From: an uncultured Gammaproteobacteria bacterium
GTDB taxonomy: Bacteria > Patescibacteriota > Patescibacteriia > Magasanikbacterales > JBBTXJ01
Reading direction: 5' to 3'
DNA: 64,000 nt
Assembly (NCBI GenBank): GCA_964636345.1
Contig: CAZWRL010000001.1
Coordinates: 235 to 64,234 of the forward strand
Of this stretch, positions 5,929-34,469 are shown piece after piece. The position numbers and the translations under genes are program-made. Position 1 is the first letter of the stretch. Every line of letters starts with the position of its first letter. Below the pieces are notes generated by a model. It saw only the letters and a list, made by a program, of their open reading frames with translations. It did no database searches and had not been told where the DNA came from.

Positions 5929-6561
5929 TTATTTTTTGAAAAGTTTAATTTTCCGGAAGATATGGGTAACTGGGGGCGTGAAGTGAAGACGCGCCATTTG
6001 AGATTTTGTATACCACCGCAGGTGTATAGATTCATGCGGGTTTTTCTTGATCTTTCCTTTCGCATGGATAAGGTAGAGGCGCCAGAAATGCTTATTCACA
6101 CCCCGGGTGCATGGATCTGGATCAATCAGGCCTTGAAAAATGAGTTGTTTATCTTTAATAGTAAGTCCGGTCTCCTCTTTTACTTCGCGCGCGAGCGCCT
6201 TAATCATTGTTTCATGTTTATCAACGTGGCCGCCGATAGTGGCATAGAGGAATGGCCAGTGGGTACGCTTGGAGATAAGATATTTTCCATTTTGTTCAAT
6301 GAGCGCGCCCGCAGAAAAATGAATTGGACCTTGCGCGGTATGGCGCACCTTAGTCGGCCCCGTCAGCTCTATAAAACGTGGATTGGTCTTACCGCACGCA
6401 CGACAGTGAAACAGTAAATACTTACCTTTGTGAAGCACTTTTAGCTTAGGTGATTTACAGATAAAACATCCGCGAATTTCTTTAGTCATACAAATAGATT
6501 GTGCCTTGTACATCCAAAAAAAGAAAGGGCTGAGTAGGCCCTTGGAGAAGAACGTATGCAC
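5929..6561 (-). CDS. Nudix hydrolase with an N-terminal CxxC...CxxC zinc ribbon
   Basis: CFICKSP...CRACGK zinc ribbon, then Nudix box GGHVDKHETMIKALAREVKEETGL. Confidence 0.7.
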   Translation of the reverse strand: MHTFFSKGLLSPFFFWMYKAQSICMTKEIRGCFICKSPKLKVLHKGKYLLFHCRACGKTNPRFIELTGPTKVRHTAQGPIHFSAGALIEQNGKYLISKRTHWPFLYATIGGHVDKHETMIKALAREVKEETGLTIKDKQLIFQGLIDPDPCTRGVNKHFWRLYLIHAKGKIKKNPHESIHLRWYTKSQMARLHFTPPVTHIFRKIKLFKK

Positions 6562-6562
6562 T

Positions 6563-7156
6563 CTAGGCGACTGAACGCCACCATTCTAGAATTTTGGCCG
6601 TCTGTTCATCCAGGGTGGAGCCACCGTTGTTATTGTGCAGAAGCAGTCGTCTCGTCATGCCGGATTGCGCAAATGCCTGACGGAAAAGGTCGCGTTTCTC
6701 AATGAGCGTTGGAAGGGAACGATCAGCGTGGCCAGAGGTGCCCCGAGGATTTGCCGCGTGACGCGCCTCCAGCGTGGCATCGTCAACATCAAGTAGCACA
6801 AGACCCACTTTCAACCGGTTCAATTCGTCATCCAGCACGCGGTAGTCCTGCACAATCCCAAGGTAGAGCTGGCAGTAGACAATGTCGGTAAGGTGCAGTC
6901 GAACAATGAGGAGCTCATCGTGTTTCACCGCCGCGATCAAGGGAAGGTGCGCTTCGCTTCTTTCTCTGAAATATTGCGAAAGCGCTTCTGTTCCATGCGC
7001 TTGCAGCGCTTTGCGGTAATATCCACTTGTTCTGATCACCACTGCATTTTTACAGGTTTGCAGGAGCGTTGCAAGCATAGCATCTTTTCCGCAATAGTTT
7101 GATCCCTCAATGATGATGCGTGGAGGGATGAGTTGCATGTTGCTCTCTCCTTTCAC
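6563..7156 (-). CDS. Hypothetical protein; possible degenerate P-loop nucleoside/nucleotide-kinase fold
   Basis: Weak Walker-A-like IEGSNYCGKD near the N-terminus; no confident family assignment. Confidence 0.3.
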   Translation of the reverse strand: MKGESNMQLIPPRIIIEGSNYCGKDAMLATLLQTCKNAVVIRTSGYYRKALQAHGTEALSQYFRERSEAHLPLIAAVKHDELLIVRLHLTDIVYCQLYLGIVQDYRVLDDELNRLKVGLVLLDVDDATLEARHAANPRGTSGHADRSLPTLIEKRDLFRQAFAQSGMTRRLLLHNNNGGSTLDEQTAKILEWWRSVA

Positions 7157-22857: not shown

Positions 22858-22947
22858 TGGCGGAGGAGGTGAGATTCGAACTCACGAGGGCTGTTAGACC
22901 CTACCTCGTTAGCAGTGAGGCGCACTAGACCACTATGCGACTCCTCC
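22858..22947 (-). tRNA. tRNA-Ser (anticodon GCU), long variable arm, encoded CCA
   Basis: Reverse complement folds as acceptor GGAGGAG/CTCCTCC, anticodon loop CUGCUAA, long extra arm and T-loop GTTCGAATC. Confidence 0.8.
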
Positions 22948-25620: not shown

Positions 25621-25711
25621 TGGCGGTGGGGGTGAGATTCGAACTCACGGTACCCTTTGGGGGTACGACAGTTTTCAAGACTGTTGCCATCAACCACTCG
25701 GCCACCCCACC
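25621..25711 (-). tRNA. tRNA-Ser (anticodon UGA), long variable arm, encoded CCA
   Basis: Reverse complement GGTGGGGTGGCCGAGTGG...anticodon loop CUUGAAA...GTTCGAATC...CCCCACC-G-CCA. Confidence 0.8.
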
Positions 25712-30491: not shown

Positions 30492-32475
30492 TATGAGTGA
30501 GGAGCAAACACATCACCGAAAACGGTTGATTACTATACTCGTCGTCGTGGGAGTGTTGTGGTTGCTCGCGATGAGCCGCGCGGTGTACGCATTCCAAGAT
30601 AAAAAGGTGATCTATGATGGCGTGAAAATTGGCGCGCAGGATTTTTCCGGTTTAACGTCCGCGCAGGCAAAAGAAAAAATACTCGCGTTTGAATCACGCA
30701 TGTCGGTGCAGGGATTATCTTTTTCTTATCGCACTGCGCGGGACGAGGAACGGCAAGCGGTGATTTATCCAGTGGTGTTTCGGAGTGATGGCACGGATTC
30801 ACGGGATATTATTGATATTGATGTAGAGGCAACGGTTGATGCGCTTTGGGCGGTGGGACGCACGGGAACGATGGTGCGCAAGGTGGGCGAGCGTATCGCC
30901 AGCCAGTGGTATGGGCGCACGGTACCGGCGGCGGTGCAGGTTGATCGCGTGCTGTTTCGTGATGTGGTGCGACTTAATCTTGCTTCCGATGAACAAGCGG
31001 CACGCGATGCGAGGGTAGCGTATGAGCAGGGTGTTTTTAGAATAGAACCTGACGCGACGGGTGTGGCATATACCGTTGATCGGGGGCTTGACGATGCGGT
31101 GGATCTTATTCGTCGTCTTGAGTTGCGACCCATTGCTGTTGATCGAACCATTGATAAGCCAACAATTACCGCCGCGGCGCTTGAGCCATTGGTTTCATTT
31201 CTCGCGCCGGTGACCGCGGACGATATTACGGTGACGTACGAAGATCCTCACAAAAAAGAGAAATTATCGTGGACGCTTGAGCATGAGAAAGTTGCGGCGT
31301 TTCTTAACGTCACACGGCATGAACAGACAGGGCTCACCCTTGGTTTGTCTGAAGAGCCGCTGCGTGCGTGGATTAAAGAAACCATTGGTCCGCGGGTTGA
31401 AGTGGAAGCACGCGATGCCAAATTTAAAATTGAGGGTGAACGCGTGATTGAGTTTCAATCAAGTCGCACCGGCGTCCGCATTGATACTCCCGCGCTTGAA
31501 GGCGCGCTTTCGCAGGTGGTAGCGGCGCGTTTTGATCGGCTCGCGCGTGGCGAGAGCGGACCCTTTTCACCGGAGCAACGTGTGGTATCACTCACGGTAG
31601 AGACGGCGGAGCCAAAGATTAAAACCGGAGATATCAACAATTTGGGGATTCAGGAAATTTTGGGTATTGGCACGTCCAGTTGGCGCGGGAGCTCAGCCAA
31701 TCGCATTAAAAATATTCGGAACGGCATGAATAAATTAAATGGTTTGCTCATTAAGCCGGGTGAGGAGTTTTCATTACTCGCCGCGCTTCGACCATTTACC
31801 TCCGAGGGTGGGTATTTGCCGGAACTCGTGATCAAGGGGGATAAAATTGAACCGGAAATCGGCGGCGGATTATGCCAAATTGGCACCACGTCATTTCGTA
31901 TGGCCATGAATAGCGGAATGCCCATTACGAGACGAATCAATCACGGTTTGGTGGTTACCTATTATAATGATCCGACGAACGGCAATCCAGGAACGGACGC
32001 AACCATTTATGATCCTGCGCCGGATTTTCGTTTTTTGAATGATACAGGACACTATCTTTTGTGGACGACACACATGGATTCTGGGGCCGGGAAATTGGAG
32101 TTCACCTTGTGGGGAACGTCTGATGGGCGTAAGGGCTCATACAGCGCGCCCGTGGTGCATAATTGGATTGCGACCGGCCCCATGAAGGAAATTGAAACAA
32201 CTGATTTGAAACCAGGTGTACGCAAGTGTCAAAGTAGACATCCGGGCGCGGTGGCCTCATTTACCTACACGGTTGATTTACCAAACGGTGAAAAGAAGGA
32301 AACGCTGTATAAAAGTTATTATCGGCCATTACCGGAAATTTGCAGCATTGGTGTTGAAAAGAAGACAGAGGGTGAACCGATACTGTCTGCCGATGGCGTG
32401 CCAACGGAAGGCGCACCTGCTGATGCTCAGGTTGCTGATACGCCGCCCATTTCAGTTGACGATCTTGCCGGATGA
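30481..32475 (+). CDS. VanW-family protein with an N-terminal TM
   Basis: VanW core GGGLCQIGTTSFRMAMNSGMPI and a downstream Cys/Gly-rich region. Confidence 0.65.
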   Translation: MKDDMSEEQTHHRKRLITILVVVGVLWLLAMSRAVYAFQDKKVIYDGVKIGAQDFSGLTSAQAKEKILAFESRMSVQGLSFSYRTARDEERQAVIYPVVFRSDGTDSRDIIDIDVEATVDALWAVGRTGTMVRKVGERIASQWYGRTVPAAVQVDRVLFRDVVRLNLASDEQAARDARVAYEQGVFRIEPDATGVAYTVDRGLDDAVDLIRRLELRPIAVDRTIDKPTITAAALEPLVSFLAPVTADDITVTYEDPHKKEKLSWTLEHEKVAAFLNVTRHEQTGLTLGLSEEPLRAWIKETIGPRVEVEARDAKFKIEGERVIEFQSSRTGVRIDTPALEGALSQVVAARFDRLARGESGPFSPEQRVVSLTVETAEPKIKTGDINNLGIQEILGIGTSSWRGSSANRIKNIRNGMNKLNGLLIKPGEEFSLLAALRPFTSEGGYLPELVIKGDKIEPEIGGGLCQIGTTSFRMAMNSGMPITRRINHGLVVTYYNDPTNGNPGTDATIYDPAPDFRFLNDTGHYLLWTTHMDSGAGKLEFTLWGTSDGRKGSYSAPVVHNWIATGPMKEIETTDLKPGVRKCQSRHPGAVASFTYTVDLPNGEKKETLYKSYYRPLPEICSIGVEKKTEGEPILSADGVPTEGAPADAQVADTPPISVDDLAG

Positions 32476-32492
32476 TTTTATTTAATTTCAGC

Positions 32493-32528
32493 CAAAAAAT
32501 ACCCTCTTGACAAGAGGTATTTTATTGT
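32493..32528 (+). terminator. Intrinsic terminator of the VanW gene (ataccctctt-gaca-aagaggtat plus T-run); its loop carries the -35 of the next promoter
   Basis: Hairpin and tttatt read directly. Confidence 0.5.
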
Positions 32529-32536
32529 GGTATGGT
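32507..32536 (+). promoter_or_regulatory. Candidate sigma70 promoter (TTGACA, 18 bp, TGgTATGGT) driving the structured RNA and GT-C gene
   Basis: Same architecture as the promoter at 9203. Confidence 0.4.
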
Positions 32537-32543
32537 GTAGTTT

Positions 32544-32729
32544 CGCTCGTGCGAAGAAGTGGCCATTCATCCGTAGTCACGACAAGCATGGAGACACCTT
32601 GTGGGGTATTGCTGGCCTCCGGGCTCGCACGCTACTTCAAGGTGTCTTCTTGACTACGGGTTCTGTGGTTATTTCTGCAACACAGGAAACACATCACCAC
32701 CCCGGCTCTGCCGGGGTGGTTTGTTTTTC
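32544..32729 (+). ncRNA. Candidate ~185-nt structured RNA or cis-regulatory leader: nested long helices ending in a perfect 10-bp terminator
   Basis: Inverted repeats read directly: ccgtagtca/tgactacgg, gacaccttg/caaggtgtc, ctgtg/cacag, and terminator ACCACCCCGG-ctctg-CCGGGGTGGT plus TTGTTTTT. Embedded ORFs are short and lack SD. Confidence 0.4.
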
Positions 32730-32771
32730 AGAGTTGCGGGAAACGAAGGGAGTGTATATAGTGGTATCGCT

Positions 32772-34469
32772 ATGAAGAAGATAATAGTTATTCTTTTTTT
32801 GTTTCTCCTCTTTCTTCCGTATTTTGGGCGCCCCTTCGCGCTAAATTTGAATCCGGATATGGGACTACAGCTCATGGATGTGTTCCGTATGGTGGATGCG
32901 CGATGGAGTTTTGCGCTTGACCCAAGCGCCGCGTACGCCAATCCACTGGTGCAGATGCTCGTGGATTTTCACGGCGTCTTTCGTCAGCTCATTTACTTTC
33001 CCATTTTTTATATTTTGGATTTGTTTGGCATGGGGATCCGCGAGGCCACCGTGTATGGAACACTCCTTATCGTAGGCGTCGCCCTCACATACCTTAATTA
33101 TATTTTTGCGCGCGTGATAGCAGGGGAGAAAAAAGCGTTTTGGTTTACCGCGCTCCTTTCGGTTATTCCTTTTTATGTGTTGCAAGTGAAAGGCGGGTGG
33201 TGGCATGTGTTTGTGTATCCGTTGCTTTTGGCAGGGCTCGCGGCGGAACACAAATTTTTAACGACCAGAGCCCGGCGATGGTACGCCTGGTTTTGCATCG
33301 CCGCTTCCGCGTATCTGTTAGCCGATACCGGTTTTGTCTTTGGCGGCTTATTGTTTGTGGTATACGCAGTGATATTTTTTTGGCAGGGGAGTAATCTGCG
33401 TGCGGTGCCCGCACATTTGTGGCGGGCCGTACGGAGTCCGTGGACGTTTCTTCCGCTTTTCGTGCTCGCTGGCTCGTTTGTTGTAACGTACATCGGAAAA
33501 ACGCGTTTCGGCGCTGAATTTGGCATCATGGCGCGTTTCTTGGAAAAAGGCGGGCATGTCGGATTTTCTGGGTTCGGTGTTCTCCCGCATTTTATCAGTC
33601 AAGGAATGGGGCTTACGGGTTTTATTCTTTTCCCCGTAATTCTTGCGACCGCTTGTTGGTTTTTGATGCGCGTTTGGCGACAAGAGCGCGATTCGTTACT
33701 TTTAACCTGTATCACTTATTTTTTTGTTACGTTTGTTCTGTTGCTTTTTGCCGGCGGATCAGGCGCGGCGGTGTATGAGTTGTATATTCCTGGTTTGCTA
33801 TTGCTGGTATACGCTTTTTCTCGGCTCAAAAAAGCATGGATACAAAATGTGTTCATGACAGGCATTGCGGCAGTGACGATGATGCAAACGGTGGCATATA
33901 ATTTTGAAATACATCCTCCGCAGTTTCTTGCTCGTTCGTATTCATTCATTCGCCCAAACGATGCCTGTACGGCACTTTGGTGTCCGTGGCATTTTGCAGA
34001 GCCCAAAAATTTAGGCATTACCACGGCCGCATTTGTGTTACGAGATTATCTCGGCATCACGCCGGTTCTCTTTACCTCCATGCAGGAGAATTTTTACGAA
34101 AAACCAAAAGAGATATTTTTTTATAGCAACTACGGGCAAGGGCCGTCCATGAGCATCGGCCGGCGGATTAGTTATGAGGTGAAGGATGTTGCGTCGGCAC
34201 GGATAATACTCGTGTTTGCGCCAGAAGTTTCCGCGCATGCGCCGGGAGCTGTAGAGAAAGAGAAAAATCAGGCAGTGTTGGATTTTCTCGCGGCTCATCC
34301 GGAATATAGAGAAGTGGCAATCGTAACACAGGACGGCGTGGAAATGATAAAAATTTTTGAGCGCGATTCAGCGCGCGCACCACGCGTGTTCTCGGTAGAG
34401 GAATACGATGCCAAGTTCAACGCGCGCTACGGGCATTTGCGGGATATTGGGTTTATTGATTTGGGGTAA
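32772..34469 (+). CDS. GT-C membrane glycosyltransferase (ArnT/PMT-like, GT39/GT83 family)
   Basis: Signal/TM N-terminus, ~11 TM helices then a soluble C-terminal domain. SD gggag before the ATG. Confidence 0.5.
   Translation: MKKIIVILFLFLLFLPYFGRPFALNLNPDMGLQLMDVFRMVDARWSFALDPSAAYANPLVQMLVDFHGVFRQLIYFPIFYILDLFGMGIREATVYGTLLIVGVALTYLNYIFARVIAGEKKAFWFTALLSVIPFYVLQVKGGWWHVFVYPLLLAGLAAEHKFLTTRARRWYAWFCIAASAYLLADTGFVFGGLLFVVYAVIFFWQGSNLRAVPAHLWRAVRSPWTFLPLFVLAGSFVVTYIGKTRFGAEFGIMARFLEKGGHVGFSGFGVLPHFISQGMGLTGFILFPVILATACWFLMRVWRQERDSLLLTCITYFFVTFVLLLFAGGSGAAVYELYIPGLLLLVYAFSRLKKAWIQNVFMTGIAAVTMMQTVAYNFEIHPPQFLARSYSFIRPNDACTALWCPWHFAEPKNLGITTAAFVLRDYLGITPVLFTSMQENFYEKPKEIFFYSNYGQGPSMSIGRRISYEVKDVASARIILVFAPEVSAHAPGAVEKEKNQAVLDFLAAHPEYREVAIVTQDGVEMIKIFERDSARAPRVFSVEEYDAKFNARYGHLRDIGFIDLG

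Follow-up and report, generated by a model that had tools for sequence, protein, structure and literature searches.

In this study, we analyzed a 64,000-nt stretch of DNA (contig CAZWRL010000001.1 of assembly GCA_964636345.1; hereafter the window, whose coordinates are used throughout) and identified in it, just upstream of a gene for a 565-aa membrane protein, an independent gene for a structured non-coding RNA. The RNA is ∼185 nt long in the window and occurs once per locus in ultra-small bacteria of the candidate phyla radiation (CPR, or Patescibacteria). We have high confidence that it represents a stand-alone structured RNA gene of a new family, which neither Rfam 15 nor the literature searched contains. 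With regard to function, the best explanation as a whole is a constitutive, trans-acting and protein-binding RNA, with a 6S-like decoy of RNA polymerase as the leading candidate, and we assign this reading a probability of roughly 0.5.

Structure and covariation of the RNA

An alignment of 72 distinct family sequences (alignment A4; MAFFT, 130 columns, few gaps) was folded by RNAalifold into a single long hairpin. At the base of this consensus, an outer 14-bp stem of free sequence is followed by a 9-bp helix, CUGCRGYCA/UGRCYGCAG. The center consists of a 10-nt bulge facing one U and of a ∼10-bp helix that starts with G-C, G·U, G·U and G-C, and the top of an irregular middle section and an apical stem of 5 bp that contains an invariant G·U pair and is closed by a mostly UNCG-type tetraloop (UCCG, UUCG, CUAG, UCAC and similar). 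The apical G·U pair lies about two helical turns from the bulge. In addition, the CAAG of the bulge is able to pair with an invariant CUUG of the 3' strand.

Covariation across homologous regions, one of the checks proposed in the initial annotation of the window, was evident: compensatory changes were found in 29 of the 38 consensus pairs. The proportion of paired cells was 90.9%, compared with 70.6% after column shuffling and 43–46% when the partners were slid, and the covariation score (0.557, versus ≤0.19 in controls) was reached by none of 500 shuffles. Three G·U pairs were fixed in 65–72 of the 72 sequences, and the first four pairs of the inner helix (G-C, G·U, G/A·U, G-C) were nearly unvarying across the family. 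Sense sequences scored 69–119 bits with the family covariance model (R2), compared with 19–39 bits for antisense sequences, a gap of roughly 60–80 bits. This gap and the fixed G·U pairs show that the structure belongs to the transcript of the plus strand. Length was also conserved, since the core stretch (the hairpin with a fixed 16 nt on each side) measured 118–123 nt in 110 distinct sequences. In one Magasanikbacteria lineage (L159/L160, 6022–6126), the family member measures only ∼105 nt and its outer stem is much shorter.

In the window, the parts of the core are as follows.

32553–32677, plus strand: family core, a rod-like hairpin of ∼120 nt (model R2, 79.5 bits, E = 1e-18)
32556–32566, plus strand: outer stem, 5' arm; pairs with 32665–32675, sequence free in the family, pairing kept
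32569–32579, plus strand: conserved helix beside the bulge, 5' arm, core CCGUAGUCA; pairs with 32651–32661, family consensus CUGCRGYCA, covarying variants
32580–32589, plus strand: invariant 10-nt bulge CGACAAGCAU, facing a single U at 32650
32590–32601, plus strand: inner helix, 5' arm GGAGACACCUUG; pairs with 32638–32649
32602–32637, plus strand: apical domain, an irregular stem ending in GGCC-UCCG-GGCU (tetraloop 32618–32621), which holds the family-invariant G·U pair
32638–32649, plus strand: inner helix, 3' arm CAAGGUGUCUUC; a strand absent from the pattern of the first scan (see below)
32645–32652, plus strand: family-wide motif UCUUCUUG from the alignment, overlapping the inner helix 3' arm
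32651–32661, plus strand: conserved helix beside the bulge, 3' arm, beginning UGACUACGG (fold and alignment)
32665–32675, plus strand: outer stem, 3' arm, which had been taken for the 5' arm of a second hairpin

The segment 32538–32728 (191 nt) had a minimum free energy (MFE) of −96.2 kcal/mol, compared with −59.1 ± 4.1 kcal/mol for 200 dinucleotide shuffles, none of which was as good (z = −9.13). This is in line with the highly structured ∼185-nt transcript suggested in the initial annotation. The nested helices described there are also present, ccgtagtca/tgactacgg at 32571–79/32651–59 and gacaccttg/caaggtgtc within a 12-bp helix at 32590–601/32638–49. A second hairpin placed at ∼32663–86 (ctgtgg...cacagg) was not supported, because the MFE fold uses the outer stem 32556–66/32665–75, which covaries strongly across the family; the 5' arm of the supposed hairpin is the 3' strand of that stem.

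Family size and distribution

Homologs of the RNA were collected by three routes. The first scan covered one genome per GTDB species and used the 10-nt bulge with its closing pairs (RRYCACGACAAGCATGGRRRYRY). It yielded 76 loci, compared with an estimated ∼9 expected by chance, and 71 of them matched the family model with E values from 5e-29 to 5e-5. The second scan, of metagenomes, left the loop free and required the two strands of the conserved helix (CTGCRGYCA-N58-72-TCTTCTTGRCYGCAG); 67 of the 71 stretches found were family members and the other 4 were unrelated. The bulge was exactly CGACAAGCAUGG in 65 of these 67 members and carried a single C-to-A change in the remaining 2. Since a scan in which the loop was free recovered the same bulge, its invariance is no artefact of search design. 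Finally, six further loci were reached via VanW homologs; in the Magasanikbacteria loci obtained by this route, the helix differs (CUGUAUCCA/UGGAUACAG) and the bulge is identical. The family thus comprises 71 species-representative genomes, 67 metagenome contigs and the 6 loci reached through VanW. Several of the contigs derive from CPR-rich groundwater, for example at the Hainich or Rifle sites.

All records of family loci that name a phylum are from CPR/Patescibacteria (Uhrbacteria, Magasanikbacteria and Komeilibacteria), groups which we take to belong to the GTDB class ABY1. According to their titles, the 71 species-representative records include 18 Uhrbacteria, 14 from the 'Patescibacteria group', 2 from the Parcubacteria group and 1 from Komeilibacteria, the remainder being labeled 'uncultured Gammaproteobacteria' (29, all third-party annotation (TPA) assemblies), 'bacterium' (5), Bdellovibrionales (1) and Kapaibacterium (1). 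It should be noted that the odd ones among these labels are probably wrong, because the order of clpP, VanW and HSP20 genes is the same as in CPR records and one such locus (L023) shares an identical core with the Uhrbacteria locus L051. Exact or near-exact copies of the proteins encoded next to the RNA in the window were found in groundwater metagenomes and in metagenome-assembled genomes named Candidatus Magasanikbacteria or Uhrbacteria, which places the window in a CPR/Patescibacteria genome.

Model R2 gave one sense match per locus. No second copy was detected by it in the window, and the motif was absent from viral contigs; a repeat or mobile element was rejected on these grounds. In two CPR genomes (L017, 58–80; L057, 270–292), the 23-nt search motif lies inside another conserved stretch with no family hairpin. 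This stretch apparently represents the 3' terminus of a gene with a terminator behind it, and the motif match appears to be a chance one that is common to the homologous genes.

The two closest genomes (L003 and L004) are syntenic with the window, and their RNA is 95–97% identical to that of the window per 100-nt segment, whereas the flanks are mostly 75–90% identical. The few differences among the three sequences comprise loop changes in a small 5' hairpin, a 6-nt indel following that hairpin and changes in the linker before the terminator. No covariation could be observed among these three genomes at this distance.

Transcription unit and gene neighborhood

A promoter of the form TTGACN-N16-18-TAnnnT was found on the RNA strand in 94 of 111 distinct upstream regions (85%), compared with 7 of 111 on the opposite strand, and 82 of the 94 promoters had a TG extension. 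The distance from the end of the -10 element to the hairpin base is 8–98 nt (median 24), implying that in some lineages the transcript begins at the base itself. At the other end, a U-run directly follows the outer stem in 56 of 128 loci, and a separate hairpin with a U-run is present in 32 more. A separate terminator is not a conserved feature, and in many loci the U-run comes after the outer stem of the hairpin itself.

The signals in the window are as follows.

32493–32527, no strand assigned: terminator-like inverted repeat 3' of the VanW stop codon; core stem 32503–32517 plus T-run, with the -35 in its loop
32507–32512, plus strand: -35 hexamer TTGACA, the same element as in 94 of 111 family loci
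32528–32536, plus strand: extended -10, TGgTATGGT, the TG extension being shared by 82 of 94 family promoters
32543–32728, plus strand: predicted primary transcript of ∼185 nt, delimited by reference to the -10 (start) and the U-tract (end)
32542–32555, plus strand: small 5' hairpin UUCGC-loop-GCGAA, lineage-specific, with a loop that varies among the three closest genomes
32676–32695, plus strand: variable single-stranded linker (comparison of close genomes)
32696–32728, plus strand: intrinsic terminator made up of an 11-bp stem with 9 GC pairs, a loop of 3 nt and a tail, UUUGUUUUU (fold and terminator analysis)

The promoter TTGACA-18-TGgTATGGT, with its -35 in the loop of the VanW terminator, had already been recognized from the window alone and was recovered where it had been placed: the -35 TTGACA (32507–32512) is separated by an 18-nt spacer from TATGGT (32531–36), which is preceded by TG. 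It matches the consensus at 10 of 12 positions and is the sole sigma-70 promoter-like site in 32000–33200; the hairpin in whose loop the -35 sits (32503–32517) is terminator-like and lies 3' of the VanW stop codon. Downstream, a GC-rich stem-loop (32696–32720; 11-bp stem 32696–706/32710–20, 9 GC pairs) is followed by TTTGTTTTT, with the U-tract at 32721–32728, which is the arrangement of an intrinsic terminator. Thus, the perfect 10-bp GC stem and U-tract described earlier stood, with a stem of 11 bp of which 9 are GC pairs. The Shine-Dalgarno sequence that was said to lie ∼40 nt further on did not: the downstream gene starts with an ATG at 32772, 43 nt beyond the U-tract, and no Shine-Dalgarno sequence is present at the usual distance from it.

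The commonest gene order, based on Pfam assignments, is clpP(+) RNA(+) VanW(-) HSP20(-), and 101 of 141 loci have VanW in convergent orientation downstream of the RNA, which usually leaves the RNA without a following gene to control. An RNA gene inverted in place, with its own signals kept, is carried by the window lineage and by some Magasanikbacteria; in the window lineage it is also separated from clpP, and both promoter and terminator are retained. A promoter in 94 of 111 upstream regions, an own terminator, a structure conserved in more than 140 loci and a mostly convergent next gene together support the stand-alone small RNA (sRNA) that was one of the two readings offered by the initial annotation.

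The position of the RNA directly after clpP in most loci raised a different explanation, namely that the hairpin is a cis element, either serving clpP at its 3' end as an elaborate terminator, a processing site or a stabilizer, or lying between clpP and VanW as a terminator for both directions. In several lineages the hairpin does abut the VanW stop, with an A-run and a U-run on its two sides. However, a dedicated promoter lies between clpP and the hairpin in 85% of loci, the RNA of the window lineage keeps its own promoter and terminator although it is inverted and away from clpP, and terminators do not hold a 10-nt bulge invariant across many species. Such a cis element is therefore very improbable, and a purely cis-acting 3' element of clpP is unlikely. 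As an observation on particular loci (L053, L070, L038, L048, L054, L062, L068 and L077), the hairpin lies between an A-run and a U-run and abuts the convergent VanW stop; in these lineages it probably doubles as a bidirectional terminator.

Downstream gene and coding potential

In the window, promoter, structured RNA, terminator and the 565-aa gene follow each other on one strand, an order that would fit a riboswitch or attenuator leader controlling this gene, as the initial annotation had suggested as its second reading. The comparison of loci refuted this. The 565-aa gene is downstream of the RNA only in the window and its two closest relatives, and homologs of its protein at 42–56% identity occur without the RNA: these distant homologs lie in glycan-synthesis clusters with short upstream spacers, and a model built from the three close sequences detected no RNA in their loci. 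In GCA_038061815.1, the RNA (L069) and a homolog of the 565-aa protein (L006) are on separate contigs. In addition, 101 of 141 loci have a convergent gene next to the RNA, so that a conserved same-strand position before coherent genes was not found; no pairing of an antiterminator with the terminator arm was apparent by eye, a point for which no systematic computation was made; and a conserved -10-like sequence, TATATAGTG, is present just upstream of the ATG of the 565-aa gene. The own promoter, the usually convergent next gene and the inversions that keep the RNA's own signals rule out a leader or riboswitch, and the chance that this reading is correct is negligible.

The sequence TATATAGTG is conserved 9–12 nt before the downstream ATG in the window (32733–32774), L003 and L004. 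In the same region, TTGCGG occurs 17 nt upstream of TATAGT, a combination that the consensus promoter scan did not flag. A separate promoter may be located here, from which a leaderless mRNA would be transcribed. The 565-aa protein itself (32772–34469) had been labeled a 'GT-C' glycosyltransferase, a label for which Pfam and NCBIfam offered no support, since no match to either was obtained even at E ≤ 1. A first genome scan with the protein found no relatives. Judging from its relatives in glycan-synthesis clusters, the label is plausible but unverified. In L003, a gene of the AbiEii toxin family with a small upstream ORF (open reading frame) is inserted downstream of the 565-aa gene (6253–6912), and a methyltransferase gene occupies the corresponding position in the window.

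It was also considered whether the locus is instead a small protein-coding gene. A gene caller predicts an 82-aa ORF at 32527–32775 (JGI), whose stop overlaps the next ATG in an ATGA arrangement that resembles translational coupling. However, even the best reading frame stays open in just 37 of the 117 distinct sequences of the family (no frame exceeds 32%), the substitutions in the stems are compensatory, and gene callers give differing ORFs in L003 and L004. Thus, no frame is conserved across the homologs, and a protein-coding gene has virtually no probability. In L003 (4001–5944) and L004 (4001–5782), the downstream gene has been annotated with N-terminal extensions, giving proteins of 647 aa and 593 aa, respectively, compared with 565 aa in the window. 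The 82-aa ORF and these extensions are annotation artefacts.

Proposed function

According to our proposal, the RNA would be synthesized constitutively from its near-consensus sigma-70-type promoter and would act in trans, held along its length by a conserved protein machine. The docking site would be the invariant asymmetric center, in which the bulge CGACAAGCAU faces one U between two clamps, CUGCRGYCA/UGRCYGCAG and the pairs G-C, G·U, G·U and G-C, and the invariant apical G·U pair, about two helical turns away, would serve as a second fixed point. A protein machine is suggested by the free outer stem, the sequence-fixed clamps, the invariant bulge, the fixed G·U pairs and the second fixed pair. 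For a trans-acting protein-binding RNA in this general sense, we put the odds slightly above even.

The leading candidate would be a 6S-like decoy of the RNA polymerase holoenzyme; the template strand of an open promoter would then be mimicked by the 5'-side bulge. RNA polymerase is suggested because the bulge is on the strand that is the template in 6S RNAs, because the closing-side helix keeps its sequence, which would be expected of a region that encodes product RNA (pRNA), and because the CAAG/CUUG pairing resembles the 'central bubble collapse helix' described for Bacillus subtilis 6S-1 (PMC8876501). In addition, base identities in the 5' bubble strand are reported to influence binding, and this strand and short arms to be sufficient for 6S function (PMC8876501). 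The hairpin is compatible with a decoy in that it is a rod with two ∼24-bp arms around a 5'-strand bulge. When the 5' strand of the conserved helix was forced open to mimic bound pRNA, only a weak extension of 2–4 bp was obtained, an uninformative result. As the specific partner, RNA polymerase is nevertheless unlikely.

Several points weigh against a protein-binding RNA of the 6S type. First, synteny offers only clpP and HSP20, which are proteostasis genes, and VanW, and no RNA-binding protein as a possible partner. Second, expression of the RNA is predicted from sequence signals alone. Third, no covariance-model match to 6S RNA (RF00013) was obtained in either direction: the Rfam 6S model has no match in the window region at E ≤ 10 or in eight diverse loci, although with the same tool it scores Escherichia coli ssrS at 139.8 bits, and R2 misses ssrS. 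Fourth, the bubble of the Rfam 6S consensus is ∼16 nt/13 nt, compared with 10 nt/1 nt here; even if never-varying pairs are discounted, the bubble reaches at most 16 nt versus 7 nt, and the two-sided central bubble of 6S RNA is thus not found. Fifth, CCACAAGAAUGUGG at nt 53–66 of E. coli ssrS (L156, 1553–1566), the junction of bubble and apical stem, matches the family center CGACAAGCAUGGGG at 11 of 14 positions, a level reached by 0.8% of shuffles; these positions are unconserved in the 6S family, and homology was rejected with the match taken as a coincidence. Sixth, the outer arm is dispensable at its full length, and its length is variable, as observed in the L159/L160 lineage.

The same promoter-to-terminator unit could also encode a trans-acting base-pairing sRNA, with the invariant bulge, or the melted strands of the weak inner helix, which is rich in AU and G·U pairs, as a seed for conserved mRNA targets. 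An invariant single-stranded stretch of 10 nt is typical of a seed, and the complement of the bulge contains AUG. However, this complement (ATGCTTGTCG) occurs three times outside the RNA, compared with ∼2.2 expected, in 1.17 Mb of related DNA, which is a small fraction of the genomes; near-matches in the window number 6 versus 6.1 expected; and neighboring genes do not open with matching codons. Moreover, a seed leaves the length of the hairpin, the fixed G·U pairs and the invariant apical pair unexplained. We therefore consider base pairing with mRNAs quite improbable. Comparison of the bulge with the 3' domain of a CPR 16S ribosomal RNA (rRNA) revealed no special complementarity, as 498 of 500 shuffled loops pair as well or better.

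Within the protein-binding reading, the RNA might be the first example encountered of a CPR-specific housekeeping ribonucleoprotein (RNP) RNA, either a minimal 6S analogue with a one-sided bubble that regulates RNA polymerase or the RNA subunit of a particle without counterpart in cultured bacteria; we hold this tentatively, at somewhat less than even chance. No report of 6S RNA in the bacteria that carry the family was found in the literature searched. A single copy, a strong promoter, covariation and an invariant center across many species-level genomes are the signature of a core component and not of a local regulator. If the RNA binds RNA polymerase, the 6S principle would work with a one-sided bubble and ∼120 nt; if the partner is something else, the family would point to an unknown RNA-protein complex. 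As part of a housekeeping RNP, the rRNA-like invariance of the bulge across the sampled species would mark the site at which a conserved cellular machine makes contact.

CPR/Patescibacteria account for a large part of bacterial diversity and are uncultured except for a few host-dependent Saccharibacteria co-cultures. To our knowledge, very little work has addressed the non-coding RNAs of these bacteria. For annotation of their genomes, a marker is available in the covariance model together with the invariant motif; the locus now carries spurious ORFs and N-terminal extensions. The RNA is small enough to be made for pull-downs from enrichment cultures.

Comparison with known RNA families

The initial annotation could not match the RNA to a known family by eye and proposed a covariance-model scan, and Rfam 15 indeed contains no match. 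No relevant family was detected at gathering score in the window or at E ≤ 10 in 32400–32850, and none at E ≤ 5 in eight diverse family loci. The sole Rfam matches in the window are two minus-strand tRNA genes of 87–88 nt (22861–22947 and 25624–25711), both of the type with a long variable arm. In 280 kb of related contigs, scans at gathering score returned only tRNAs and a 16S fragment, and their power is too low to judge the presence of canonical 6S RNA or signal recognition particle (SRP) RNA. The literature searched contained nothing relevant on the motif, on 6S RNA in CPR or on structured RNAs in Patescibacteria.

A divergent member of a known housekeeping family, that is, SRP RNA, Y RNA or canonical 6S RNA, would explain why the hairpin is single-copy, strongly promoted and similar in size to 4.5S RNA, and the 11/14 local match to E. 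coli 6S could be cited for it. However, it has little probability in view of the lack of any Rfam 15 match at E ≤ 10 or E ≤ 5, the failure of the 6S tests, the variable UNCG-type apical tetraloop (SRP domain IV has a GNRA loop together with symmetric and asymmetric loops) and the absence of an rsr gene among the immediate neighbors examined.

Among the known RNAs, 6S RNA comes closest in size, rod shape and gene organization. Both are single-copy, independently transcribed RNAs of the abundant type, forming a rod with a closing and an apical arm around an unpaired 5'-strand center and a sequence-conserved helix on the closing side, and the ∼185 nt of the window RNA equal the length of E. coli 6S. 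A further parallel is the potential CAAG/CUUG rearrangement helix, which brings to mind the helix formed on bubble collapse in B. subtilis 6S-1 (PMC8876501). On the other hand, the family core has only ∼120 nt, and its center is sequence-invariant, whereas the bubble of 6S RNA is poorly conserved in sequence. Thus, of the earlier '6S-like' impression, size and rod shape held, whereas an Rfam 6S match and a two-sided bubble did not.

SRP RNA (4.5S, RF00169) is similar in being a hairpin of 110–120 nt with conserved length, a strong promoter and one copy, in having an asymmetric internal loop that is heavy on the 5' side, and in having two conserved sites along the rod. It differs in that no model matches and in its GNRA tetraloop, which is variable and UNCG-type here; the conserved loop lies ∼24 bp from the apex here and next to it in SRP RNA, and the AGCA/GGAA motif of domain IV is absent here. 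SRP RNA (RF00169/RF01854) was rejected on the missing match, the variable non-GNRA loop and the misplaced conserved loop. With regard to Y RNA, there appears to be a loose likeness to its Ro-binding helix (GUC.../...UUGAC). Y RNA and YrlA were rejected, as no model matched and the neighbors are clpP, VanW and HSP20 instead of rsr (Ro60/TROVE). HAIR, CtsR and CIRCE operators, judged by eye, were likewise set aside, as the order and spacing of half-sites are wrong and stems of this length that covary point to an RNA.

Finally, the family can be compared with orphan structured RNAs that only comparative genomics has brought to light, such as raiA and OLE. It has another sequence, fold and host lineage, and it is a simpler single rod with an rRNA-like invariant center. 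What it shares with them is that they are defined by covariation and synteny, belong to one bacterial lineage and were of unknown function when discovered.

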